Positions 1 to 55,437 of a stretch of 64,000 nucleotides of DNA are shown here, piece by piece. The stretch spans positions 1,113 through 65,112 of the forward strand of contig CAJAUM010000052.1 of NCBI GenBank assembly GCA_903945175.1. The letters are read 5' to 3'. Source of the stretch: an uncultured Bacteroidales bacterium (GTDB lineage: Bacteria; Bacteroidota; Bacteroidia; Bacteroidales; FEN-979). Each line of letters begins with the position of its first letter. Position 1 is the first letter of the stretch. Under the pieces are notes generated by a model. It was not told the origin of the DNA and searched no databases. It was given only the letters and a program-made list of their open reading frames with translations. The translations under genes were made by a program, and so were the position numbers.

Positions 1-324
1 TAATTCTTGACTGGCAGATTATTTTTGCAATTTAAGGACGCACTTAACTTATTCATGCTTTGAATTTATTGTTGGGTTTGAATGATTTCTTCCAAATTGG
101 GATTTTCTCATAACAGTTTGAATTTCATGCTATTTTCAGGCTTAGCCGGGTGATGATGGACCAGGTGATGTGATATTGTTACGATATATTGACTTTATAC
201 TCATAAATATGTGATTATTCAAAGTTGTAACATCCTGTATTATACTTATTAAAAAATAAATATTGGCAGATGGTATGGTAAATATATGAAATAAATAAAT
301 AAACCAAATATATTTTTAAACTGC

Positions 325-354
325 AAAAAAAAAACCGCCCTTTGGGAGCGGTTT
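325..354 (-). terminator. Intrinsic terminator after the GLUG/T9SS gene (copy 1 of a duplicated 3'UTR-terminator module)
   Basis: The minus strand reads AAACCGC-TCCCAAAGG-GCGGTTT followed by a T-run (plus-strand A-run 325-334). It lies 35 nt past the stop at 389. The same 28-nt block recurs at 3763-3790. Confidence 0.8.
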
Positions 355-388
355 CAGTAACGAATGAGGGAAGTATGTTGAGGTGCTC

Positions 389-3184
389 TTATTTCCACAG
401 GATGATCTTTTTCATGACAATCTTGTCTCCCATAAGAACCCTGGCAATGTAAACACCGTTTAAGCAGTTCACTTCGATCTGGTTGAGGCCGTGTTCAACC
501 TGCCGACCCAATACCTTTTGTCCAAGCAGGTTGTACAGTTCGGCTTTTGCCGGTCCCCCGGCAAGCACATCGATGTAAAGCATGCTCCCGGCCGAATAAA
601 TATGTACCGCAGGTTGATCTGTCAACTCGGTCTCCCCTGATCCTTTTTTTGAAAAGTACAATGAAAAACGGGCGGCATCAGGGCCTGCCAATTCTGACTG
701 AAAAGTGAAGCTGTTGTTTTCGCGGAGATCCTGCCTGAAGCCACCCTGTTTATCCAGCAGATAAACCGATAACCCGGGATCAAATTCATTCATGTTGGTT
801 GCCTCCATGGTAAATACCCCTGCAACGGCGGTTCCAAAACCCAGGGGAATGGTAAGTGAGTCCTGATTTAGAAGTAGCGGTTGCCCGTTGATCACCACCA
901 CGTGATTATCGGAGGTAAAGGTAAACAGATGCGGATAGGCGGCATCGTTGAACCGTTTTTCAGAGTCGTACGGATCAAAGCCTGGTAGCGCCTGTTCGTA
1001 AAAACCAACGGCGATGTCGTCCTTTAAGGTATCCCGGCTGACAAACAACCTGAAAATATTTTGCTCTCCTATACTTTTGTAAAACGGCTGGCTGTTATGA
1101 ACCCTGGCCCCGTTCCCGATCTTGAGTGTTCCCTGACCGGAGGCTGCATCGGATACATGAACCCAGAAGCCCTGCATGGCAGGTATGTAGGGCTGGCCCA
1201 CCGGGCTTCCCGTTCCGGTTCCGGAGGTGCTGTTGTAGGTTGAATAGGTGCTGTTGGTGCGGTACCAAATGGTTGAATCGATGCCTGTTCTGGTGATACC
1301 GGTTGCGGGATGGGCGGGACTTCCCCAGTTGATGGCCGACGGGAATGGATTGCAAACCAGGTTGTACCCGGCGTTGGCGCCGCCGGAGGTGAAGGTCAGG
1401 TTATTGTCGGCCCCGATCCATCCGCTGTTCAGCGCTCCGGGGAATGTGGCAATGTTGGCGCCGGTGAAATTTTTATAGGAATATCCCTTCATTGGCGCAA
1501 GCGCAGCGCTGCCGTCGGTGATGTTGACATAGGCATTGGTGGGTTCATTCCACGAGAACAGCCTGGTGCCGGTATTTGGGGTCGGAGACAATGTTCCGAA
1601 AGAGCCGGTGGTTGCATTGGCCATGGGTGAGCCGATATACCACCAGCGGTTGCCCGAAAGATCATGTTTAACTTTTGTGGTCCCTGACCCGGTAATGCCA
1701 TTGTCGATAAACGACCCTTCCGTTTCAATCACCAGGTTTTCTCCCCCGTTCAGGTAGGTCATGCCCTGCACGGTCAGGAAACTGCCTGACGCGATGGTGA
1801 GCTTAATGCCAGGGTCGATTTTAAGATGTGTGCAAAGAACCGGCGAGGAGGGGCCCTGGCTGATTACGGGAGAATATGTACCAACATAGATACGGACAGT
1901 GGCGCCCGGAGGAGGGACATACCGCATCCAGCTACCCGTCGCCATCCAGTTACCCGCCGTATTCCAGTCAGAGCTTATACTACCTTGCCAAACTACAATA
2001 TCTTTCGGAAGGTAAGGATATGCGTTGTTGACCGTGTCGGTCATTGCCCATTGCTCCGTAAAATCCCAACCGGTAAAGGTGTTCTTGTCCTTCATCTGAG
2101 CGGTGGTCCTGCCCGAACCTCCCCCGGTGCTTGACGACTGTCCTGAAGTCTGGGTGTCCCAATAGCAATCAGTTACTGAATTTATACCGTTGTTGGCAGG
2201 GTCATTGATGCCTATAAACCCCACTGCCGTTCCCGGGCTTACAAAGCCTGTGGAATATGATAGTTGAACCCACGATTTGCGTTTAATGAGGCCTGCCAGT
2301 CCGCCTGCGCAGGCATTACCTGCCGCCACCGTTACAGCTGACCTTGAATAACAATCAGCCACTACGGAATTTATCATTGTTCCGATTAAGCCGCCTGCAC
2401 TCCCGTCTGGACAATTGTTGATGACCGGACCGGATGAATGACAAAACTTGATATAAGGACGCTTTGTCATTGTTGCCAAATAATCTCCTTCTGCAACACC
2501 AATTAATCCGCCACAATTGGTGCCAGGATCATATGGATAGCTTTGGGTCGAAACGCATGATACCGCCGCAGAGGATGAACAAAGCTTCACCTGTAGATTT
2601 ACTTGGGCGTAAGGCGACTCGTATGTAGACACAATTCCAATCAAACCGCCTGCACATGAAAGTAGTCCTGTCGCCGTGATTGACCCCGACGTATGACAAT
2701 CATAGATTTGGATTGTAGGAAAGTTGCTGCTCATGTCAATTATCGCAGCAGCAGCAAGACCTCCAGTCTTGGCATAATCCGTTCCGATGGTTATATTACA
2801 ACCAGAGATGGTCAGGTTCATGATCACAGTCCCGCCGCCCAGCAGGCCAAATAAGCCACCGTTGTATTCATCGCTGGGGTTATTGATCGTTAACCCTGTT
2901 ATCGTTTTATAGTTTCCCATGAAATTTCCGCAGAAAGGATTCCCCTGTAAACCGATTGAAACCCAGGAAGAATATCCTGATAAACTGATGTCGTTCATCA
3001 GCTTGAACCAGATCCCATAATAAGTATCGCCGTTATTTACATTGGTGGCCAGGGTGGCCAGGTCGGCCGCCGTGGCGATCTGGTAGGGATCGGATTGGGT
3101 CCCGGAACCCGACCATCCGAACGCATTCATGCCCTCCAGGCAAAGGATGAGTAAAAGCGCTGCAATTGTGATTCGTGTTTTCAT
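389..3184 (-). CDS. GLUG-motif repeat protein with T9SS type-A C-terminal sorting domain (secreted or surface cargo)
   Basis: ORF 389..3316 trimmed to ATG 3184, which begins a signal peptide (MKTRITIAALLLILCLEGMNAFG). Repeated GGL[IAF]G units are present (GGLFGLLGGG, GGLIGIVS, GGLIGVAEG, GGLIGTMI, GGLAGLI). The C-terminal tail ...LYNLLGQKV...GVYIARVLMGDKIVMKKIILWK is typical of Por_Secre_tail domains. No HExxH motif seen. Confidence 0.8.
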   Translation of the reverse strand: MKTRITIAALLLILCLEGMNAFGWSGSGTQSDPYQIATAADLATLATNVNNGDTYYGIWFKLMNDISLSGYSSWVSIGLQGNPFCGNFMGNYKTITGLTINNPSDEYNGGLFGLLGGGTVIMNLTISGCNITIGTDYAKTGGLAAAAIIDMSSNFPTIQIYDCHTSGSITATGLLSCAGGLIGIVSTYESPYAQVNLQVKLCSSSAAVSCVSTQSYPYDPGTNCGGLIGVAEGDYLATMTKRPYIKFCHSSGPVINNCPDGSAGGLIGTMINSVVADCYSRSAVTVAAGNACAGGLAGLIKRKSWVQLSYSTGFVSPGTAVGFIGINDPANNGINSVTDCYWDTQTSGQSSSTGGGSGRTTAQMKDKNTFTGWDFTEQWAMTDTVNNAYPYLPKDIVVWQGSISSDWNTAGNWMATGSWMRYVPPPGATVRIYVGTYSPVISQGPSSPVLCTHLKIDPGIKLTIASGSFLTVQGMTYLNGGENLVIETEGSFIDNGITGSGTTKVKHDLSGNRWWYIGSPMANATTGSFGTLSPTPNTGTRLFSWNEPTNAYVNITDGSAALAPMKGYSYKNFTGANIATFPGALNSGWIGADNNLTFTSGGANAGYNLVCNPFPSAINWGSPAHPATGITRTGIDSTIWYRTNSTYSTYNSTSGTGTGSPVGQPYIPAMQGFWVHVSDAASGQGTLKIGNGARVHNSQPFYKSIGEQNIFRLFVSRDTLKDDIAVGFYEQALPGFDPYDSEKRFNDAAYPHLFTFTSDNHVVVINGQPLLLNQDSLTIPLGFGTAVAGVFTMEATNMNEFDPGLSVYLLDKQGGFRQDLRENNSFTFQSELAGPDAARFSLYFSKKGSGETELTDQPAVHIYSAGSMLYIDVLAGGPAKAELYNLLGQKVLGRQVEHGLNQIEVNCLNGVYIARVLMGDKIVMKKIILWK

Positions 3185-3236
3185 GCTGGTAAAATCTATC
3201 TGTTTGAAAATCTTGAATATGGATAAGTCATGCATT

Positions 3237-3557
3237 TTACCCGCCCGGATCACCCGGAGGGGGGCAACCAAAAACCGTACATATAATAATAGAATCCTCG
3301 GCCCTTCCCCCGGCAATCATTTCCAGCTCGTTTGCAGTCAACTCTGTTTCATCAGGCTGAGCCGGAATAGTTGGAAGGACCAGGAACACAGTCTGCGGAT
3401 CCTCCTCCAGGATTCTCAAGTTGACGGATGGAGAAAGTTCAAACCCCGTCACGTCCTGAATGACTGCTTTCGGGTTTTCAAGAAGCTTCTTCCTGAAATC
3501 CGGGTCTTTCATCGCTTTTTCGATGAGTTGCTGTTCAAGTTTTTTTCGTTGTTCCAT
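3237..3557 (-). CDS. NHLP (nitrile-hydratase-like leader peptide) family RiPP precursor, 106 aa
   Basis: The leader MEQRKKLEQQLIEKAMKDPDFRKKLLENPKAVIQDVTGFELSPSVNLRILEEDPQTVFLVLPTIPA...ELTANELEMIAGG matches the NHLP/TOMM-propeptide pattern, including the double-Gly cleavage motif. The 22-aa core is RAEDSIIICTVFGCPPPGDPGG. ATG at 3557, TAA at 3237. Confidence 0.85.
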   Translation of the reverse strand: MEQRKKLEQQLIEKAMKDPDFRKKLLENPKAVIQDVTGFELSPSVNLRILEEDPQTVFLVLPTIPAQPDETELTANELEMIAGGRAEDSIIICTVFGCPPPGDPGG

Positions 3558-3661
3558 TGGTATAGACTTTTATTAAATACTGTGAAATTATGAAAAGTTG
3601 GATGAAATGGAAAAATATTTTCAATTGTGCATATCGCATCATTTACCTAAAAATCTCACTC

Positions 3662-3669
3662 CAAAGATA
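3662..3669 (-). promoter_or_regulatory. Candidate Bacteroidota -7 box (TATCTTTG) for the NHLP-GLUG unit
   Basis: Perfect TAnnTTTG on the minus strand. It sits between the upstream terminator (3755-3789) and ATG 3557, which implies a leader of about 100 nt. Confidence 0.4.
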
Positions 3670-3754
3670 ACTTCAAGTGGTCATGAATCAAAACAAAGCA
3701 GATAAGGATTTAACAATAGGAGTAAGGGATTGTAAAAAAGCATGGGGTATACTG

Positions 3755-3789
3755 AAAAAAACAAAAAAACCGCCCTTTGGGAGCGGTTT
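3755..3789 (-). terminator. Intrinsic terminator, copy 2 of the duplicated module
   Basis: Hairpin identical to 332-354, followed by a T-rich run on the minus strand. It lies 31 nt past the stop of the small ORF at 3820. Confidence 0.75.
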
Positions 3790-3819
3790 CTGGAATGTAT
3801 GCGGGAAATATGTTGAATG

Positions 3820-3993
3820 TTATTCGAAATCAGCGAATAACGGTGTTGCCGGGGCCAATGAAGCAATATCAACCTTTGGATTTAACATCTCATCCTCAAA
3901 AGAAGCAACAACTGGAAAAACCGGAGCAAGGCCGTCGAAGATCATTTCGGTATAGGTGTAATAGTTAAAGCTGGCAGAAGGACAGCATACCAT
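3820..3993 (-). CDS. Small ORF (57 aa) carrying two AP-x-x-P-x-x-A-x-F-[ED] motifs; possibly a truncated paralog of 30505..30903
   Basis: My own translation gives MVCCPSASFNYYTYTEMIFDGLAPVFPVVASFEDEMLNPKVDIASLAPATPLFADFE*. It is below the 60-aa track cutoff; the stop-to-stop frame extends to 4113. It has no signal peptide. It ends with the same motif as the 30505 protein and has its own terminator. Confidence 0.3.
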   Translation of the reverse strand: MVCCPSASFNYYTYTEMIFDGLAPVFPVVASFEDEMLNPKVDIASLAPATPLFADFE

Positions 3994-4256
3994 AATTCCT
4001 TGGTGACCCGAAAAATTGAAATTTTGAAGTAGGAGACTGGGAATTATTGGGGAAAAAGATGAAATATCGGACGATGACAGAAAATTTATCAGATTGAGTT
4101 GTGCAGCAGGTAATCAAACCAATTTGCGTTTGGAATTCTATCTTCTTCCGGTAGTTTTGAATTTACCATGAGGGCACTGAGTTTATCGCGGATTATTCCT
4201 GCCAGCTATCCACTAAAATTCGGCCGGGGAGTGGTCAAGAATGAAGTTTCAAGAAA

Positions 4257-4294
4257 TCAAAAAGAAGACGATGATTTGTCATATCATCGTCTTC
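4257..4294 (-). terminator. Intrinsic terminator after the Bor-like lipoprotein gene
   Basis: 12-bp perfect stem GAAGACGATGAT/ATCATCGTCTTC with a 7-nt loop. It is followed on the minus strand by CTTTTTGATTT and lies 22 nt past the stop at 4316. Confidence 0.8.
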
Positions 4295-4315
4295 CGGCAA
4301 TCGTAAACTGAACGA

Positions 4316-4609
4316 TTATTTTGTTACGTAAGTGGTGGTGGGTGAATAAATATACAAGGTTACATAAGTAACCAAACCATTGACAAACGATTGTTTCGTT
4401 TTAACGGTGTAATCTTTCGTGTCACCTGCCATTTTTTTGGGATCGGATAATTTCACGCGAACCAAACCTCCAAGCATGTAATGATTCCATTTTGTTACTT
4501 GCTGGGTGCCTTTTGCACCTTCACCAACCGTAGTTTTATAGGTATAGCATGAAGTAAATAAAAATGAGCACAAGAGCAATCCAACCGACATCTTAATAAT
4601 TCTTTTCAT
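4316..4609 (-). CDS. Bor/Iss-family lipoprotein
   Basis: Lipoprotein signal MKRIIKMSVGLLLCSFLFTSC. The C-terminal KQSFVNGLVTYVTLYIYSPTTTYV resembles lambda/E. coli Bor QQTFVNGLLGFITLGIYTPLEARV. Confidence 0.6.
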   Translation of the reverse strand: MKRIIKMSVGLLLCSFLFTSCYTYKTTVGEGAKGTQQVTKWNHYMLGGLVRVKLSDPKKMAGDTKDYTVKTKQSFVNGLVTYVTLYIYSPTTTYVTK

Positions 4610-4666
4610 TTTTAGTTGATTTTAGTTAGTTATGTAGTAATAAGCAGCTGGATGTAACACCAGTAA

Positions 4667-5299
4667 CTATTTTAATTCTTTTGTTATTTGCGGGTCGTTC
4701 ATCCACGATGCGATCTCTTTTTCCAGGTATTCAGGTGCATATTTCTTATAATTTGTACCCAAGATATCGGTAGCAATCTTCTCGCTTTTTTGAAAATTTT
4801 TGAATGCAAGCGTGTTTCCCGATTTATCAAAGACTTCGATATCCACGTCAATGTCGATCATGGTAGCAACAACCATGACAAGTTGCAATTTCTTAAATTT
4901 AATGATCATCAGTCGATCACTAGAGGATTGAATCAGCCTGGTCTTTATGTCGTCATAATTATCTTTGTAAGAGGTCGGAATTAATGAAACCGTATAACCT
5001 TTGGACTTAAATGACTGTGAAATTATCTCCTGGATTACGTCAGTAAAGTTTTTCCCACTCTTTGTTCCCATGGGCCAAGCGACACCAATATCTGAAAGTT
5101 GGTATCCAACAAAATCCGCTTTACGGCTTCCCTTCACGACCATCTCCCTTTGATCATAAACTGCAAGGGCGATGGATTTTGTTCCGGAATAATTTATTTC
5201 CACTTTCATTTTTTCATACGGAACTTTCTTCCCTACCACACAGCCCATGAGCGTTATTAAAAAGATCGAATAAATCGCAAACACACATAATTTTTTCAT
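4667..5299 (-). CDS. Hypothetical lipoprotein (weak YajG-like layout)
   Basis: Signal plus lipobox MKKLCVFAIYSIFLITLMGC. The 210-aa mature part has no motif I can name with confidence. Confidence 0.5.
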   Translation of the reverse strand: MKKLCVFAIYSIFLITLMGCVVGKKVPYEKMKVEINYSGTKSIALAVYDQREMVVKGSRKADFVGYQLSDIGVAWPMGTKSGKNFTDVIQEIISQSFKSKGYTVSLIPTSYKDNYDDIKTRLIQSSSDRLMIIKFKKLQLVMVVATMIDIDVDIEVFDKSGNTLAFKNFQKSEKIATDILGTNYKKYAPEYLEKEIASWMNDPQITKELK

Positions 5300-5533
5300 A
5301 AAAATGATTTTACGATTAGATTTATAATAACAGGGGTTTGAATAACGGACGACTTACCTTTTACGGCCCAATAGACAGCAAAGGGTGTGCCGGAAATAGT
5401 TGATAAATCAAAAATGAGTGATCTGATCAGCTATAGATCTGAATATGAAATATGATTTAAATATTATTTTTTTTAAGAAGAAATATTTAGGGAAGATTTA
5501 TGGGAAGATTTGAATATTTTTATCAATATAATC

Positions 5534-5563
5534 GCGTATACATGCGAAAAAGCGTGTATACGC
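5534..5563. repeat. 30-nt near-perfect hairpin/palindrome in non-coding DNA
   Basis: GCGTATACATGC-GAAAAA-GCGTGTATACGC forms a 12-bp stem with one G-U pair. Each arm contains GTATAC. No T-tract follows on either side. Confidence 0.7.
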
Positions 5564-5814
5564 AAAGGATTAGTGTTGGTTTATACTCCCACAATTCACA
5601 AATTAAGATAATTCACTATGTGGACAAGCGGGTCAAATTGATTATCCTTCGCAGATTTAGTCAGAACACTTCAACCTTTTAACAATCAATGAATACGGGT
5701 GGCGATTTTCAATGCTTAGGATGGTCAAAATCATCGAGTCTTCTATTTTAATTTCTGAAATAAGAAGGGACAGCTCGCCCCCTTCTTTACATTCAACCGG
5801 TTAAAATTACTCCT

Positions 5815-5997
5815 TTATAGGTTCTCACTTTTACGCTTTAGATAATCGTTGAAAGATTTCTCTCCTTCTTCATTCCAATACTGGTCATAGTAGCTCCATT
5901 TTAAACCATGGGTATAATCCCTGCAATTACCACTATCAATCGTGTGATATTTGTGTTTTCATGGCCCAAAATTATGTCGACTGCCGCTGTTGGTCAT
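5815..5997 (-). pseudogene. Decayed 60-codon ORF with an in-frame TGA at codon 13
   Basis: MTNSGSRHNFGP*KHKYHTIDSGNCRDYTHGLKWSYYDQYWNEEGEKSFNDYLKRKSENL. The TGA is at 5959-5961. Hairpin AAGAAGGG/CCCTTCTT at 5762-5787 lies just downstream. TGA is a normal stop elsewhere in the window. Confidence 0.35.
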
Positions 5998-6631
5998 TAT
6001 TTTGAAGTTTATTTAGTTCACTGATGGGTAGTGCAAATATGGAAAAATATTTTTTGTCCGACGCAACCTTTTTTCATGTTACGATGTCTTTAAGAAAAAC
6101 TAAAACCATGACACCACAAGAGACGAATACTGGCCTCAAGGAAACAGACTTGTTTCATCTCTACATAAACCTGCTTCACCGAAAGTTTGAGATTGACCAA
6201 TAATGAAAAATCGAGCAAACGTATGCTTTGCGGCATGAGGTTCATGAGGTCAAAAGAATGATCAGAGAATTAAGTATTTTAATGATTTATAATTCCATAA
6301 AGGTCATCAGGAACTGATCTGTTCTCAAAGAAAGAATGTTAGTCAAATCGAAATATCAGTTTCCGGCAACAACATATTGGCCCACTTCTTTTTTTCTTCG
6401 TCTTCGAAGTTGGCGAGGTAGCAAGTTTCATTTCTTTTCGTATGTTTGAAATACTGATATAAATTTTCGGTTTTCGGAGGGTACTTTATTGTGTGTGTCA
6501 GACAACAAAGCTAATAAAAAGCAAATTTTGTAAGTAATTGATTATGAGTAACATGATTTAAAATAGAAATGTACTAAGCCCGTAAATAACTCAATATCAA
6601 TATTATAACAATTTGTATGCAAATTGTAGGC

Positions 6632-6672
6632 AAAAAAGAAAAAAGCCACTCAGATTTTCATCGTAAGTGGCT
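6632..6672 (-). terminator. Terminator-like hairpin after tRNA-Val
   Basis: Stem AGCCACT/AGTGGCT (6644-6650 and 6666-6672) with a 15-nt loop. On the minus strand it is followed by TTTTTCTTTTTTG, 8 nt past the tRNA 3' end. Confidence 0.5.
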
Positions 6673-6679
6673 GATTTGG

Positions 6680-6757
6680 TGGTGGGAGCAACAGGATTCG
6701 AACCTGTGACCCTCTGCTTGTAAGGCAGATGCTCTGAACCGGCTGAGCTATGCTCCC
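6680..6757 (-). tRNA. tRNA-Val (anticodon TAC), CCA encoded
   Basis: The reverse complement is GGGAGCATAGCTCAGCCGGTTCAGAGCATCTGCCTTACAAGCAGAGGGTCACAGGTTCGAATCCTGTTGCTCCCACCA. It folds as a cloverleaf with anticodon loop CTTACAA and T-loop GGTTCGAATCC. Confidence 0.95.
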
Positions 6758-6770
6758 TTAATTGAGGGTG

Positions 6771-6778
6771 CAAAGGTA
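6771..6778 (-). promoter_or_regulatory. -7 box TACCTTTG for tRNA-Val (part of the extended TACCTTTGCACCC motif)
   Basis: Minus-strand TACCTTTGCACCCTC, 14 nt upstream of the mature tRNA 5' end. Confidence 0.6.
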
Positions 6779-6867
6779 ATGATTATTTCAAGACATCCAA
6801 ATGTCAAACAAGGATTCTGCCTTTTTATTGAAAATCCAATCCACCCGAAACCATGAATTGCTTGAGA

Positions 6868-7323
6868 TTATTTTGGATGGAGTCCAAAAAAGCGTCTGAT
6901 GGTCCTGTGAAACTTATGAATACCTTCCACCGGATCGATGTGCATCAGTATACACTCCTTTGTTATCAGGTTTACCGGATGAGAACTTGCCAATTCAACG
7001 GATTCGGGGGTGTCTGACATCTGTTGAATCCAAATGTTGTCGATTCCCTTGGCAAGCGCTTCAGCAACCACCCCCTGCGTTTGTTTTTTCGGTGTGATGA
7101 TTAACAGACTGTGCACATTGAGTGGAAGGGCGCCAACACTGCGGAAACAGGGCACCCCTTCGATCACATCGGCCCCGGGATTGATCGGGTATACCTCAAA
7201 TCCTTTTTCTTTAAGGTTTTTGAATACCTGGTGCCCGAATTTCTTCGGATCCCTGGAAACACCTGCAATCGCAACTTTGCGTGATGACAGGAAGGAGTCA
7301 ATGGATGTTTTTGTGGCCTTCAT
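6868..7323 (-). CDS. CoA-binding domain protein
   Basis: KVAIAGVSRDPKKFGHQVFKNLKEKGFEVYPINPG is a CoA_binding_2-type motif. Start trimmed to ATG 7323 (MKATKTSIDSF...). Confidence 0.7.
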   Translation of the reverse strand: MKATKTSIDSFLSSRKVAIAGVSRDPKKFGHQVFKNLKEKGFEVYPINPGADVIEGVPCFRSVGALPLNVHSLLIITPKKQTQGVVAEALAKGIDNIWIQQMSDTPESVELASSHPVNLITKECILMHIDPVEGIHKFHRTIRRFFGLHPK

Positions 7324-7443
7324 TTGCTGCTTTTTAAAAATGAAATAAACGGCCCCCGAGTTCGCGATACGCCAGGTGGTTGGCCGGCACCTGAAAAAAA
7401 TATTCAACTAGGGCAATTCCACGGGTCATTTTGTAAAATAATT

Positions 7444-18796: not shown

Positions 18797-21412
18797 TTAT
18801 CTGAGGATGGTGACAGACCCATGGAGATTGCGTTTGACGGTTCCTGACAGCTTTATTTCAAAGAGATCGCACACATAAAAATAGGTGCCGTCGCTGCATG
18901 GCTGATTGGTTGTTTTATCCTTCCCATCCCAATTGATGTCTGGGTCGGTCGTTTCAAATACCTCCTTGCCCCATCTGTCAAATATTTTCATATTCACCTC
19001 CTCCACTGAAAAATTATAGATGGGTCTGAAATAATCATTAAAGGAGTCTCCGTTCGGGGTGAAGATATTGGGCAGGTTATACCGGCATTCAAGGCCGGCT
19101 GTGATATCAATACAAACGATATTGCTCATGGCACTTCTGTTGCCTGCTGAATCAACCGCCACAATGCCATAGCAACCAACAATGGTATTTGCCTGTTTAT
19201 GATAATAGACAGTATCGAATGGATTAAAAATGGAATCATAAAGCACCGGTTCACCCTGGCCGGGTGTGAAATAAATATAATACCGGGCCATATCAGCCGG
19301 ACAGCTGTCTGCCGGTTTGGTCCAGGACAACACGTTGGTCATCTCTTTACACAACGTAATTATGTTAAGAAGCGGGGGGCAAGGTGGGATATTATCTATC
19401 GGGATGGCGCATTTTTCCTGTGAAAAGTTAATAATCGGCTCAACAAATCCGGAGGCAGAATATTTTCCGATGCTTTTGATCTTATAACAATAGCGCAGTC
19501 CGTTCACCAATCCCATATCCCGGTAATTCGGAACGGTGCTCATGCCAACCGAATCGAAAACGTTTGCTTCAGGGCCTTTGCGGAAAATAACGAACCGTGA
19601 ATTTGACCAGGGAACTGCATTGGTCCAATTTAACATGACCATTTTATCCGTTGGAGTCAAAGAGAGGAACATGGAAGATGCCACTGGAGAACTTCCGATC
19701 AGAAACCGGTTTCCCGTAGTGACATTATAGAGGTCGATGCGATAATTGAACCCGAATCTTTCCGTATTTAACAGGGTGTCGGTGAGGATTGTGTCGTTGA
19801 GACTGTTGAGTGAGTCGATCAGTACAAATTGTTCAGAGGCATCACTTCTGGATCTGGCAACGATATACTTGTAGGGGCCTGGAGCCTGTACCGGATCAAT
19901 TTCAGTGGGTTTTGACCAGGCAACATAGACAGATCCTGTGTTTTCGAGCGTTGTATTGATGCTGACATTGGTAATCAGGGCCACATCCTTTTTTAAAGTG
20001 GCGCATGCTTCGTTTGAAGCATAGCTTTCAGCCCGGTCAGGATAATAGGCGACAATTAAATAACAATACTTCAAGCCACGCATCAATCCTGATCCTTTGT
20101 TGTCATCAAGGTAAGTGGTTTTTGAGATATCAGTGTATTCAGCTATTTTGGTGTAGCCCAGATATCCAGGCACTCCGGTTTCACAGTAACCTGGCACATA
20201 TCCTGATGAATCAGCCTTCCGGTAGATTTGGTATCCCAGGGCATTTTCACAGCCATAATTGTCCCAGTTCAGTGTGATGGTATTTCCGATGGGATAGGCC
20301 GTGAGATTTTCAGGTGCCGGGCCAATGACAAGGATCTTGATAGATTTGAATGTGACAAGGCTTACGGGGGAGCCGTCATCCTTGGCCTTGAAGAACATCT
20401 GGTAGGGATTTTTTTTAATATGATTGCATGTCGTATTCCACCGGAACAGCGCCTGCGTATGGCCCTTTCCTGTGGCAGGATTTGGTTCCAGGGTGGCCGG
20501 ATTATCTGTGATGAGCAGAGGTCCCCCGGTGCCGGTAAGTGTAATGTTGTTACTGTCCGGATCATAGGTCTTAACAGGAAACCGAAGAATTTTTCCGGCT
20601 TCCACGCAGGTGTCGAATACAGAATCGATAACGGGAGGACGGTTATTGCAGGCCAGGACAATGATCTGCATATCACGAAGTACACTGCCAATCCGGAGGC
20701 CATCCCGCCATTCTTCGATGAGGATTGCAATGTTGTATTCGCCCTGTTGTTCCGGGCTATCCCAGATTAGATCACCGGTTACCTGATTCAGCGTCAGACT
20801 TTTCGAGGCAGCAGGCAAAGTATACCCTGGAATTGGTTGACCGAGGGCACCACGGCAGGTTATCAATTTGTACGACAAGCTATCGCCATCAGCATCGTAA
20901 GCCCCGGGATTATGGTAAAACGGCTGATTCACACATCCGTTATCGATGGGCGGGATTAACAAAACCGGTGAATTGTTGTAGCCTCCGATGAATGGGCTGA
21001 TCATAAGTTCAGAAACGATGAAGAGCGGGGTGTTGATTGAATTCGGAATATTAAGGATTCCCCCGTTCCGGTTTGGGTCTTCACAGGAAATTGTGTAGGT
21101 TGATGGTCCTGGAAAAGTATGCTGGCCAAGATATTTGTTATAGGTTATTTCATCGGGCAAATAGGTCACTTGTACTCTGCGGATTTCGGAAGCAGTTCCG
21201 TCTCCCCAGTTAATCAGAAGGTATTCGCGAAAGGCATTGGCAGGACTTGGTGTAAATGTATAGGAAATGAGTGTGATTTCATAGGTCAGGCCAGAGACGT
21301 GGCGGTATGTGATTTCTGCTGCACGCTGGTGGGTGGCGAAAGCCAAAAAGGGACAAACGACGGGAAGCAGAAGGTTCAGCAGGAACAGTCTCATCAACAA
21401 TCGTCTCTTCAT
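18797..21412 (-). CDS. T9SS type-B sorting-domain protein (gliding-motility-associated C-terminal domain)
   Basis: Signal peptide, then the THQRAAEITYRH motif. The C-terminus reads NIFTPNGDSFNDYFRP...KIFDRWGKEVF...INWDGKD...GTYFYV. Confidence 0.85.
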   Translation of the reverse strand: MKRRLLMRLFLLNLLLPVVCPFLAFATHQRAAEITYRHVSGLTYEITLISYTFTPSPANAFREYLLINWGDGTASEIRRVQVTYLPDEITYNKYLGQHTFPGPSTYTISCEDPNRNGGILNIPNSINTPLFIVSELMISPFIGGYNNSPVLLIPPIDNGCVNQPFYHNPGAYDADGDSLSYKLITCRGALGQPIPGYTLPAASKSLTLNQVTGDLIWDSPEQQGEYNIAILIEEWRDGLRIGSVLRDMQIIVLACNNRPPVIDSVFDTCVEAGKILRFPVKTYDPDSNNITLTGTGGPLLITDNPATLEPNPATGKGHTQALFRWNTTCNHIKKNPYQMFFKAKDDGSPVSLVTFKSIKILVIGPAPENLTAYPIGNTITLNWDNYGCENALGYQIYRKADSSGYVPGYCETGVPGYLGYTKIAEYTDISKTTYLDDNKGSGLMRGLKYCYLIVAYYPDRAESYASNEACATLKKDVALITNVSINTTLENTGSVYVAWSKPTEIDPVQAPGPYKYIVARSRSDASEQFVLIDSLNSLNDTILTDTLLNTERFGFNYRIDLYNVTTGNRFLIGSSPVASSMFLSLTPTDKMVMLNWTNAVPWSNSRFVIFRKGPEANVFDSVGMSTVPNYRDMGLVNGLRYCYKIKSIGKYSASGFVEPIINFSQEKCAIPIDNIPPCPPLLNIITLCKEMTNVLSWTKPADSCPADMARYYIYFTPGQGEPVLYDSIFNPFDTVYYHKQANTIVGCYGIVAVDSAGNRSAMSNIVCIDITAGLECRYNLPNIFTPNGDSFNDYFRPIYNFSVEEVNMKIFDRWGKEVFETTDPDINWDGKDKTTNQPCSDGTYFYVCDLFEIKLSGTVKRNLHGSVTILR

Positions 21413-53405: not shown

Positions 53406-53597
53406 TCAGTGATTTAGTAATAAACTATGATATTTTTTCTCTTTTCCCCTGACATCTTTCAATGAGTCAATTTTTGCCTGGTCAGGGGCCGGATGGACAA
53501 TGCGTTTTGTGTCGCTTTTCACCGGGGGGTGCTGCTGATGGCACGATACCCATCCAAAAAGGAAAACAAAGTTAACCAGCAATAACAAGCTTTTCAT
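53406..53597 (-). CDS. Small His-rich lipoprotein (hypothetical)
   Basis: MKSLLLLVNFVFLFGWVSC lipobox; the mature peptide is about 44 aa. The stop lies 3 nt before the sucB ATG, and the start overlaps the 3' end of the upstream T9SS gene. Confidence 0.4.
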   Translation of the reverse strand: MKSLLLLVNFVFLFGWVSCHQQHPPVKSDTKRIVHPAPDQAKIDSLKDVRGKEKKYHSLLLNH

Positions 53598-55437
53598 TTT
53601 TAATGATCGCATCATCTGTTTTTAGAATTATAAAATATATTCCGGGAAGAAGATTTTCTTTATTGAAGGAGAAATTGTTTTTCCCCTTTTGTCCACGCCC
53701 CGAAAAAAGTTCTTTGATGAGTTTTCCGTTTCCATCCAGGATACTGATCTTGACTGTGCCTGGTGAGGGAAGTTCAAATTCCAATGAAAACCGGTTATTT
53801 GCAGGATTGGGGAACAGATGCAACGGCTTTTGATCTGAGGCTGTTTCAATGATTCCGCTTGAGGTTCCATATACCTCTGCAATCCATGTGTCCCAAACGT
53901 TTTTGTTATTGCCGAACATACCGCTAAGCCAAATGGTTGGCCTGGTTGCATTGTGCTGCCTGCAGGTTCCACTGTAATCTCCCCATCGTTCGGGATCACC
54001 GGTATAGGAAACATAGGCATCGCCTGCCCTGATCTCTGTTGATCCTGACCAGTTGAAGTCGTGGTCGCAGTTAACCACGCGAATGGAAGGGAATGTGGTG
54101 GAACTTGATTTCAAAAAGCCGATCATCACCGATTTATCGGTTTTATCCGTTGCAAAGGATGATACCGAAGGATAGCAATAATCGGATCCATTCAAACCAA
54201 AGGTGGTAGACTGGTTTGTCAAGGCGGAGACATCCAACCTGTTATAGTTGACGCCGCAATATCCGTCGGCATATACAGCATTGAATACAAAATGGGCGGT
54301 ACCTTCCAGGTAGAAGCCGCTGAGCATACGGCAATCATTGGTGTTGAGTTTTACTGCCGTGCCCGATTGCAAGGCGTCCGGGGCAACTTTATACGGTGTG
54401 ACATTGACCGGATGGTACTCCAGTTTTTCATCAGCAGCCGACATGTCGTCGGTGAGGTTATAAAAGTGTATCAGCGATGCATCCGATGATTCACTGGCCA
54501 CAAAATAGCATCCTGGTCCATAGTTTCCTTGTTGTCCCCAGGACAGTGGCGTAATCGTAAATGGGCCACCGGCAATATCTTTCCAGAACTGCCAGTTGAG
54601 TGTTTCTCCGTTATATCCCGGATTTTTAGGTATCTGGTAAATTACCGATTGGTCATAATTGCCATTGTCCAAATACAGATTCCCGGTTATATAGAGTTCG
54701 TTGGTGGATACTGCCAACTTCGGATAATCAAAGGCACCTCCATTGCCCAGGGGATTTCCGGTGAGCTTATAGTACCACCACCCATCCGAGGGGTTATTTG
54801 TTTTGGAGAAAAAGATAAGCAGTTTTGATTTGGTGGAGTTCAGCGGTGAAACCTGACAGAAAAAGATAAACCGGTCGGAACCCGAATCATAAATTACCAC
54901 CGGATCACATACTCCTTCGATGGCTGCGTCACCAATGAAAGAGATTAGATCATTGAAATAGATATTCTGTCCCTGCATATTGTCGTATTCGATGGTTGTA
55001 TTGGCCACGCTCACGATGATGCCATTGTTTGATATGGCCAGGGAATTGTCAAGGGGAGACATGTCGTTGTTTGTGTTCCCGGCGAAATTTGATCCGATGG
55101 TGGGGACGACACTTTGTGATCCATTTTCAACTCCCGTTACTTTTTTTGCCTCTTGTTGAAGTTTCATTTTCAATCGTTCGGCTTTGAGCCGTTGCACGGC
55201 TGAATCTGGTTTTGACCTATGCATGATACGAATCGGACTCATCACAGGTTTCCATTGGAGATCGACCCCCGGATTGTTCATGAATCCTGCACAAGGAGTT
55301 GTAATGATCTTTGATTTAACTCCATTGCCTTGCGGGCTGGTTTGTGGGTTGTCCGCCATCCGAACTTTGTTATGCTGGGCATTGGCAGCCATTGCGAATG
55401 AAAAAGCAAGTCCGAGTAAAAGCATCAATGGTTTCAT
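53572..55437 (-). CDS. T9SS type-A sorting-domain protein of unknown function
   Basis: Signal peptide MKPLMLLLGLAFSFAMAANAQ. The C-terminal tail LFPNPANNRFSLEFELPSPGTVKISILDGNGKLIKEL...GIYFIILKTDDAIIKNEKLVI is of the Por_Secre_tail type. Confidence 0.75.
   Translation of the reverse strand: MKPLMLLLGLAFSFAMAANAQHNKVRMADNPQTSPQGNGVKSKIITTPCAGFMNNPGVDLQWKPVMSPIRIMHRSKPDSAVQRLKAERLKMKLQQEAKKVTGVENGSQSVVPTIGSNFAGNTNNDMSPLDNSLAISNNGIIVSVANTTIEYDNMQGQNIYFNDLISFIGDAAIEGVCDPVVIYDSGSDRFIFFCQVSPLNSTKSKLLIFFSKTNNPSDGWWYYKLTGNPLGNGGAFDYPKLAVSTNELYITGNLYLDNGNYDQSVIYQIPKNPGYNGETLNWQFWKDIAGGPFTITPLSWGQQGNYGPGCYFVASESSDASLIHFYNLTDDMSAADEKLEYHPVNVTPYKVAPDALQSGTAVKLNTNDCRMLSGFYLEGTAHFVFNAVYADGYCGVNYNRLDVSALTNQSTTFGLNGSDYCYPSVSSFATDKTDKSVMIGFLKSSSTTFPSIRVVNCDHDFNWSGSTEIRAGDAYVSYTGDPERWGDYSGTCRQHNATRPTIWLSGMFGNNKNVWDTWIAEVYGTSSGIIETASDQKPLHLFPNPANNRFSLEFELPSPGTVKISILDGNGKLIKELFSGRGQKGKNNFSFNKENLLPGIYFIILKTDDAIIKNEKLVIAG

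Follow-up and report, generated by a model that had tools for sequence, protein, structure and literature searches.

Gene clusters that pair NHLP precursors with a LanM synthetase have been known since Haft et al. 2010, for example in Nostoc sp. PCC 7120 and N. punctiforme (PMC2887384). These clusters encode a leader of ~80 aa ending in GG and a short core with Cys, Ser and Thr, next to an adjacent LanM, a C39-ABC exporter (export families TIGR03794/03796/03797) and HlyD. In the prochlorosins and synechococsins (ProcA/SyncA, ProcM/SyncM) of marine picocyanobacteria, one LanM of the CCG type serves many precursors, which combine a conserved long leader and a GG cleavage site with hypervariable cores. 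The CCG zinc site is a mark of promiscuous, substrate-tolerant ProcM-like enzymes (PMC8524650, PMC10783134), and prochlorosin precursor genes sometimes lie far from lanM, alone and near mobile DNA (PMC10783134, PMC8524650, bioRxiv 10.1101/2020.03.09.984088). Proteusins and radical-SAM-modified NHLP peptides have the NHLP leader in common with these systems. In lichenicidin (LicM2/LicP) and cytolysin (CylM/CylB/CylA) biosynthesis, cleavage of the precursor at GG by a PCAT is followed by trimming with an extracellular S8 protease. Our full-text literature searches returned very little on NHLP-LanM systems in Bacteroidetes.

The precursor described here is of the NHLP/LanM kind recognised in 2010, and it is probably operated in the manner of the prochlorosins. 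It was found in a window of 64 kb (the whole stretch of DNA that we analysed) from an uncultured Bacteroidales bacterium. In contrast to the clusters of Haft et al., the window precursor is detached from LanM, exporter and HlyD, and the related clusters of Bacteroidota add T9SS-secreted C10 and S8 proteases, a protein that we call p346, and a pair of SQHop-like and AbiEii-like proteins. The hosts are freshwater Bacteroidales/Bacteroidota MAGs and not marine picocyanobacteria, and their LanMs are about 35% identical to the cyanobacterial ones, although likewise of the CCG type. Unlike the prochlorosins, the leader is of the NHLP family (TIGR03793) and fails the Nif11 model (TIGR03798), and the core type of the window, instead of being hypervariable, is conserved and tied to a T9SS cargo gene. 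The closest solved structures to the Bacteroidota LanMs are LicM2 (6st5) and CylM (5dzt); LicM2 has CHG where the Bacteroidota enzymes have CCG. As in lichenicidin and cytolysin biosynthesis, S8 proteases are encoded in the clusters, here together with C10 proteases and as T9SS substrates. In contrast to the proteusins, no radical SAM gene lies near the window copy or most of its orthologs. The features of the locus, in window coordinates, are:

3237..3557, minus strand: NHLP-leader RiPP precursor gene, ATG start, 106 aa (from the ORF list and the sequence)
3306-3557, minus strand: leader, codons 1-84 (residues 1-84)
3240-3305, minus strand: core, codons 85-106 (residues 85-106, 22 aa, RAEDSIIICTVFGCPPPGDPGG)
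3237-3239, minus strand: stop codon of the precursor
389..3181, minus strand: T9SS cargo gene, 930 aa, 55 nt after the precursor stop
3662..3692, minus strand: Bacteroidetes-type promoter-like motif TTTG-N19-TAtcTTTG, between the upstream terminator-like hairpin and the start codon
3760..3816, no strand: 57-nt direct repeat, upstream copy, holding the hairpin 3791-3765; upstream edge of the cassette
325..381, no strand: 57-nt direct repeat, downstream copy, holding the hairpin 355-331; end of the two-gene unit

The ORF at 3237-3557 is a real gene for an NHLP long-leader peptide precursor. Its product consists of MEQRKKLEQQLIEKAMKDPDFRKKLLENPKAVIQDVTGFELSPSVNLRILEEDPQTVFLVLPTIPAQPDETELTANELEMIAGG (leader) followed by RAEDSIIICTVFGCPPPGDPGG (core), exactly as the original prediction had described it: 106 aa, with an 84-aa leader ending in ELEMIAGG and a 22-aa core. 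The NHLP character of the leader, which had been read from its pattern, was borne out by a search with the NCBIfam model TIGR03793 (leader_NHLP), which the precursor protein matches across all 77 model positions (77.5 bits, cutoff 50.9; E 5e-22). The Nif11 leader model TIGR03798 gave only 13.1 bits against a cutoff of 32.3. Pfam NHase_alpha scores 30.5 bits against 27.2, with the precursor aligning at profile positions 113-170 only. The protein has the traits of the NHLP family: an NHase-alpha-like leader of ~80 aa lacking the Cys active site, a GG end and a short core. The ELEMIAGG terminus of the leader is a perfect double-glycine motif, in which the positions L-12, E-8, L-7, I-4, G-2 and G-1 can be read. 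The pattern L-12/E-8/L-7/I-4/GG is the classic double-glycine signal consensus. The same motif was given by Haft et al. 2010 (PMC2887384). Cys9 and Cys14 of the core are the sole two cysteines of the whole 106-aa protein, and the leader is free of Cys. A chance ORF is ruled out by the TIGR03793 score, the existence of 18 homologs and their dN/dS ratios. The 90-aa ORF at 3677-3955 on the plus strand, which is called as a gene in some assemblies, is probably spurious: it matches no family and overlaps the repeat and the terminator-like hairpin.

In the core, Ser5/Cys9 and Thr10/Cys14 are followed by PPPGDPGG, and this arrangement suggests two rings, Ser5-Cys9 and Thr10-Cys14. Alignments and core lists of the closest group among the 18 homologs give the core R-A-(E)-D-S-x2-3-C-T-x-F-G-C-P-P-P-G-D-P-G-G, and the C-terminal C-T-x-[FY]-x-C-P-P-P-G-D-P-G-G is invariant in the aligned orthologs. 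Two consecutive S/T-x3-C units had been proposed. The second, T-x3-C, holds in nearly all alleles; the first does not hold as a strict S-x3-C, since only the 106-aa alleles have this spacing with Ser, the 104-aa alleles reading S-x2-C and L049 reading T-x3-C. The L049 ortholog, reached independently via its cargo protein, is 55% identical to the window precursor, and its core LAQNTGILCTFYACPPPGDPGG reads T-x3-C and again T-x3-C. The combination of [S/T]-x2-3-C with T-x3-C is kept in nearly all alleles, L049 included; the single exception is P0001, from a contig of 705 bp. Another ortholog, P0005 (79% identity), has the core RAEDSVLICTVFGCPPPGDPGG.

The core residues do not vary freely among the aligned orthologs, a point on which the original prediction had been made to depend. 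Nei-Gojobori estimates of dN/dS are about 0.05-0.15 in the core where dS is adequate, and 0.2-0.5 in the leader. The cores of L012 and L001 differ by 9 synonymous and 2 non-synonymous changes, those of the window and L012 by 7 synonymous and 2 conservative changes, and comparison of the window core with those of L039 and L040 gives a dN/dS of 0.12-0.15. The ORF is intact in every precursor copy seen. The core is thus under purifying selection, also among detached copies with no LanM nearby; its dN/dS lies below that of the leader, such copies included, which identifies the core as the constrained part of the protein.

The original prediction that no maturase or exporter lies within 60 kb proved correct. 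Pfam scans of 52 ORFs of the window found no LanM, YcaO, radical-SAM or PCAT protein, and in tblastn searches with LanM, PCAT, HlyD and all other proteins of the related clusters the precursor and the gene beside it were the only matches within the window. The window is lopsided, with 60 kb upstream of the precursor and only 388 bp past the downstream gene, and the result is blind on the latter side. On a metagenome contig with the same locus (L009), the 10 kb downstream contain no LanM, PCAT or HlyD either. The window carries a single NHLP precursor, which on one side has no LanM for at least 60 kb. Its other genes are ordinary housekeeping genes (DnaX, PfkB, IF-2, NusA, LepA, RelA/SpoT, BamA, SucA/SucB, DsbD, TilS and others), together with two unrelated T9SS cargo genes detected in the Pfam scans.

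The only partner of the precursor in its transcription unit had been named as a T9SS cargo gene, and this agrees with our results. The cargo protein begins with MKTRITIAALLLILCLEGMNAFG, which reads as a signal peptide, and continues with an N-terminal GLUG-motif region (its homologs bear PF07581, Glug), a RemA-like middle and C-terminal region (PDB match to the gliding adhesin RemA, 8gl6_D, E 1.3e-17) and a T9SS type A sorting domain at residues 870-927 (TIGR04183, 27.6 bits against 23). The 55-nt gap between the two genes contains no terminator-like site, and terminator-like hairpins on the gene strand flank the pair, one ahead of the precursor (3791-3765) and one behind the cargo gene (355-331). 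Precursor and cargo gene are therefore predicted to be co-transcribed. The Bacteroidetes promoter consensus is TTTG-N19-TAnnTTTG. The promoter-like motif upstream of the precursor is a match to this consensus only, and the pattern occurs 5 times in the 64 kb, where chance predicts 2.1. A scan for sigma-70 promoters was uninformative (11 sites against 8.6 expected). Another match to the promoter-like pattern is found just upstream of tRNA-Val.

Comparison with relatives places this type of precursor beside a LanM. In L001, L002 and L005 (JGI contigs of up to 240 kb) the ortholog P0005 starts 33 nt after the gene for a 1092-aa LanM and is followed by the cargo ortholog. In the MAG ELA698 (L018) the precursor-cargo module shares an island with a LanM, at a distance of 8 kb. 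The term "stand-alone" is thus accurate for the locus in the window; it does not extend to the peptide family, whose member in L001 is found 33 bp downstream of a LanM. Loci L014, L044, L026, L029, L030, L042 and L045 define a canonical cluster order: ABC2, PCAT, HlyD, NHLP, the 346-aa unknown protein p346, AbiEii-like and squalene-cyclase-like genes, then NHLP, LanM, several more NHLP genes and the T9SS-secreted C10 and S8 proteases. The likeness to the NHLP-LanM clusters of Haft et al. is seen in L014, L044, L026 and L042. The LanM of L014 scores 852.9 bits on TIGR03897, and TIGR03796, the model of the NHLP-family export ABC transporter, gives 1058.8 bits with the transporter (PCAT) of L044. 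The LCCG of the LanM aligns with the LCHG zinc-ligand motif of LicM2 (6st5), and a CCG zinc site is present in 114 of the 118 full-length LanM homologs.

In total, the related loci encode 47 different NHLP peptides; their leaders are conserved, their cores are hypervariable, and most of the cores contain both Cys and Ser/Thr. L014 has five NHLP precursors and L022 ten or more, and some MAGs have two or three separate NHLP loci. Of about six informative contexts of the module of precursor and cargo gene, only two show a LanM within 10 kb.

These contexts differ widely. The module is found in a LanM island (L001, L018), in an island with C10 proteases and no visible LanM (L012, L017, L040), on the tRNA-Val/Bor side of the chromosome (the window, L009, L033, L039), next to IS21, ParB and AbiEii (L010) and in one further context (L047, L048). 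Window positions 1..3953 are 99.7% identical at the nucleotide level to L010 by blastn, and beyond this point the two sequences are unrelated, with L010 continuing into IS21, ParB and AbiEii. Positions 1..3953 mark the left end of a mobile, phage-like element that continues past the start of the window. The 122-kb metagenome contig L009 represents the same locus (98.8% nucleotide identity), and beyond the point corresponding to the window start it encodes a protein of 252 aa, an excisionase-like HTH_17 protein, an SbcC-like ATPase of 647 aa, RecT and a protein with a metallo-beta-lactamase fold. Among phages, RecT is best matched by those of Cellulophaga (46% identity); the label "prophage" comes from this similarity and the gene content only. 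IMG/VR scans with the precursor and with the 647-aa ATPase gave zero matches, and no att-like repeat of the 3' end of tRNA-Val was found within the searched DNA of L009, L010 and L039. In L011 the nucleotide identity is 96% over window positions 3237-7353 and 73% in the adjacent housekeeping genes, which indicates transfer between species. The cassette is therefore mobile and occurs in three or more insertion contexts; in the window it borders phage-like DNA, beside tRNA-Val.

The two copies of the 57-nt direct repeat are 88% identical and are its only two occurrences in the window. In L001 the repeat is single and located after the cargo gene; an additional copy, ahead of the precursor, occurs in the relocated form alone. 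The constancy of the gene pair in varying surroundings, together with the second repeat copy restricted to the relocated form, indicates that the stand-alone state is derived by a cassette-like relocation. The precursor in the window has moved out of a LanM island as a two-gene cassette comprising promoter, precursor, RemA-like T9SS cargo gene and terminator. One precursor-cargo unit thus moves alone between genomes while its core stays fixed, and the apparent orphan becomes explicable by comparing loci across relatives.

On balance, we slightly favor the view that the gene encodes a genuine class II lanthipeptide precursor (an NHLP-leader LanA) of a Bacteroidota family with one ProcM-like LanM and many precursors, and that the peptide is modified in trans. 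LanM genes adjoin its orthologs (L001, ELA698), the LanM is of the CCG type, and the pattern [S/T]...C-T-x3-C is conserved, which makes modification by a LanM in trans the best supported explanation. The part of the original prediction that proposed a two-ring, lanthipeptide-like substrate modified in trans is upheld by the LanM genes beside orthologs and by their CCG site. Its other branches, a thiazoline substrate and a handler not yet linked to NHLP leaders, are not upheld, and the latter is needless to explain the data. A LanM is probably encoded elsewhere in this genome. A complete LanM/PCAT cluster (L014, a 92-kb contig) was recovered from the same metagenome sample as L009 (ERZ27250415), and the same cluster is also present in the JGI sample series from which L033 and L039 come. 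GC content and tetranucleotide similarity were considered as a link between L014 and the genome of the window and rejected as not discriminating: the tetranucleotide correlation to the window is 0.92 for L014 and 0.98 for L009, with other species at 0.93-0.96.

According to the mechanism that we propose, a CCG-type LanM encoded elsewhere in the genome would bind the conserved 84-aa leader and dehydrate Ser5 and Thr10 of the core. Addition of Cys9 and Cys14 would then produce two small adjacent (methyl)lanthionine rings, with a total mass change of -36 Da. A C39 peptidase/ABC exporter of the NHLP type (TIGR03796, with HlyD) would cut after ELEMIAGG and export the peptide. The RAED at the N-terminus might conceivably be trimmed by the T9SS-secreted C10 or S8 proteases of the clusters. 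If modification in trans is correct, it would carry the ProcM-like model of one promiscuous synthetase with many scattered precursors beyond marine cyanobacteria into freshwater Bacteroidota that are uncultured and whose leaders are NHLP instead of Nif11, and the small two-ring core would offer a concrete substrate to try with a CCG-type LanM. Several observations point away from a LanM in trans: LanM is absent from the window and from the 10 kb beyond it in L009, few contexts of the module have one within 10 kb, the island of L019 has none within 20 kb, L049 has a radical SAM/SPASM gene instead, and the spacing of the first Ser-Cys pair is either x2 or x3.

Several other explanations have to be weighed against modification by a LanM in trans. 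The genome may have no LanM, in which case the precursor would be a hitch-hiker on mobile DNA, left unmodified (perhaps with a Cys9-Cys14 disulfide) or silent and decaying. The mobility of the module, with its three or more insertion contexts and the cross-species transfer seen in L011, is compatible with this, as is the lack of a maturase within reach. The syntenic island of a related MAG, L019 (Kiruna_bin-10044), contains NHLP precursors and no LanM within 20 kb, and LanM is absent in 3 of 12 Synechococcus strains with procA genes (PMC10783134). However, decay is hard to reconcile with the strong purifying selection on the core among detached copies and with an ORF intact in all copies seen. 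The perfect double-glycine motif, moreover, implies a C39 peptidase partner, and the LanM/PCAT cluster co-occurs in the same samples. We therefore consider a decaying or unmodified orphan rather unlikely. It is distinctly less probable that the core is modified by another class of enzyme: a radical SAM/SPASM protein forming Cys-derived thioethers, the 354-aa squalene-cyclase-like protein with the AbiEii-like nucleotidyltransferase, or p346. NHLP leaders serve several enzyme classes (PMC2887384, PMC4289311), and the clusters conserve both p346 and the pair of SQHop-like and AbiEii-like genes. In L049, a locus reached via the cargo and not via the precursor, the precursor-cargo pair adjoins a radical SAM/SPASM gene. 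This nearest maturase-like gene has its best matches among peptide maturases and passes no curated family cutoff. It is however seen in L049 only, on the opposite strand and beside a truncated cargo gene, and none of the candidate genes occurs in the window. p346 regularly accompanies another NHLP, one without Cys, and in L001 it is a LanM that directly adjoins this very core type. A thiazoline (TOMM-type) substrate, with Cys heterocyclised by a YcaO cyclodehydratase, is disfavoured and extremely unlikely. The core has Cys, Ser and Thr, and NHLP leaders were first described with cyclodehydratases (PMC2887384); but no YcaO or docking-scaffold gene was found among the window ORFs or in any Pfam-annotated related locus, where LanM is found instead.

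The remaining alternatives concern the cargo gene, which directly follows this type of precursor wherever the contig extends far enough. The small protein could be a partner, ligand, or secretion or regulatory factor of the RemA-like cargo rather than a free RiPP. The pair is kept in every context, including L049, where a cargo homolog with 58% identity, looked up independently of the precursor, has an NHLP precursor directly upstream. Such a role would explain the fixed pair and the PPPGDPGG tail, and for a member of a ProcA-like family the core varies unusually little. Against it, the leader and the GG motif are those of exported, cleaved RiPPs, and a cargo homolog with 42% identity (L050) has no NHLP gene upstream and adjoins an unrelated RiPP-like gene cluster. 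Furthermore, precursor and cargo alleles reassort freely among strains with identical flanks (a+1 in the window, a+2 in L009 and b+2 in L039). Between such strains the identity of the cargo is 36-70% over the first 500 aa and 88-98% in the C-terminal part, and the variable half does not co-vary with the peptide. The reassortment of alleles argues against tight co-evolution of precursor and cargo, and we regard a dedicated cargo partner as very unlikely.

With the lanthipeptide reading preferred, the recurrent organisation of precursor and T9SS cargo is the sole element left without explanation. The fixed pairing of NHLP and RemA-like T9SS protein might itself be functional: a mobile element would bring in a precursor that uses the LanM and exporter of the host, and the product would act with or on the adhesin. 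We think this improbable. Full-text searching of the literature turned up no publication that ties lanthipeptides to T9SS by a mechanism. A functional pairing would connect RiPP biosynthesis with the secretion and adhesion machinery of Bacteroidota, and would mean that the NHLP precursors of Bacteroidota islands are organised more broadly as units of "precursor + T9SS cargo". Other NHLP genes of the islands, like the precursor in the window, are likewise followed by T9SS cargo genes.

The precursor gene and the adjacent cargo gene (window 389-3181, minus strand) form a unit flanked by two copies of a direct repeat, which are 88% identical and each contain a terminator-like hairpin:

window 325-381: 57-nt direct repeat, first copy
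window 3760-3816: 57-nt direct repeat, second copy

The repeat occurs just twice across the 64-kb window. A single copy, located after the cargo gene, is present in L001, a relative in which the precursor ortholog adjoins the lanthipeptide synthetase gene lanM. The N-terminal ~500 aa of the cargo protein are hypervariable among strains sharing identical flanking genes, with 36-70% identity between the window and its near-identical version L009; over the C-terminal 430 aa the identity is 88-98%. Alleles of the precursor and of the cargo are reassorted across the window, L009 and the related loci L039 and L047.

Within window 4316-6757, tRNA-Val is followed by an AT-rich stretch and then by two lipoproteins, one of 210 aa and one that is lambda Bor-like:

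window 6680-6757, minus strand: tRNA-Val
window 5300-6680: AT-rich stretch of 1.4 kb next after the tRNA, GC about 0.35, without credible ORFs

The related locus L011 matches window 3237-7353 at 96% nucleotide identity, as against 73% in the adjacent housekeeping genes, and this difference suggests that the tRNA-Val side is a hot spot of transfer. No att repeat was found within the DNA available.

Further NHLP genes followed by a T9SS cargo gene were found in the related NHLP islands (L014 10517-13099 and 15173-17407; L001 15787-18690). Two of these cargos are proteases, a C10 cysteine protease and an S8 subtilisin, and are candidate enzymes for trimming exported peptides outside the cell; the third is BNR/sortilin-like. 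The window itself encodes two more T9SS cargos with CHU_C and Por_Secre_tail domains:

window 18797-21412, minus strand: T9SS cargo gene
window 53572-55437, minus strand: T9SS cargo gene

Neither has an NHLP gene upstream, and therefore cargo and precursor are not generally paired in the source genome.

The islands also share conserved accessory genes and, in two loci, LanM homologs of about 790-830 aa:

L014 2236-3606, also L019, L020, L022, L026, L029, L030 and L032: ~346-aa protein with an adjoining NHLP gene
L014 3638-5772, L005 17608-19736, L018 6053-8172 and L019 13802-15927: conserved pair of adjacent or overlapping genes
L029 10763-13126 and L030 10334-12697 (protein P0124): short LanM homologs

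The ~346-aa protein has no Pfam or NCBIfam match, and its NHLP-LanM clusters belong to distant MAGs, including one of Leptospirales. In L014 and L019 the neighbouring NHLP peptide carries the Cys-less core TGWGGPGQGS. This protein is a candidate uncharacterised maturase. The conserved pair encodes a squalene-cyclase-like protein (354 aa) and an AbiEii-like nucleotidyltransferase (355 aa). The short LanM homologs comprise the DUF4135 dehydratase part only, the LanC-like cyclase domain being missing, and some of the NHLP cores near them lack Cys.

Two loci were reached through the cargo protein:

L049 4964-9220: locus with a precursor ortholog, a truncated cargo gene and a squalene-cyclase-like gene fragment
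L050 179-5407: different RiPP-like gene set, on the upstream side of a cargo homolog with 42% identity

L049 also encodes a fusion of an NHLP leader with a p117-like domain (183 aa), as well as a radical SAM/SPASM protein that falls below every curated family cutoff. The L050 set comprises an HprK-related kinase, PqqD, NTP_transf_5 and a peptidase-ABC transporter. Among its ORFs is one of 59 aa whose sequence includes STPPGDP, reminiscent of the PPPGDPGG tail of the window core, a likeness that may be coincidental.
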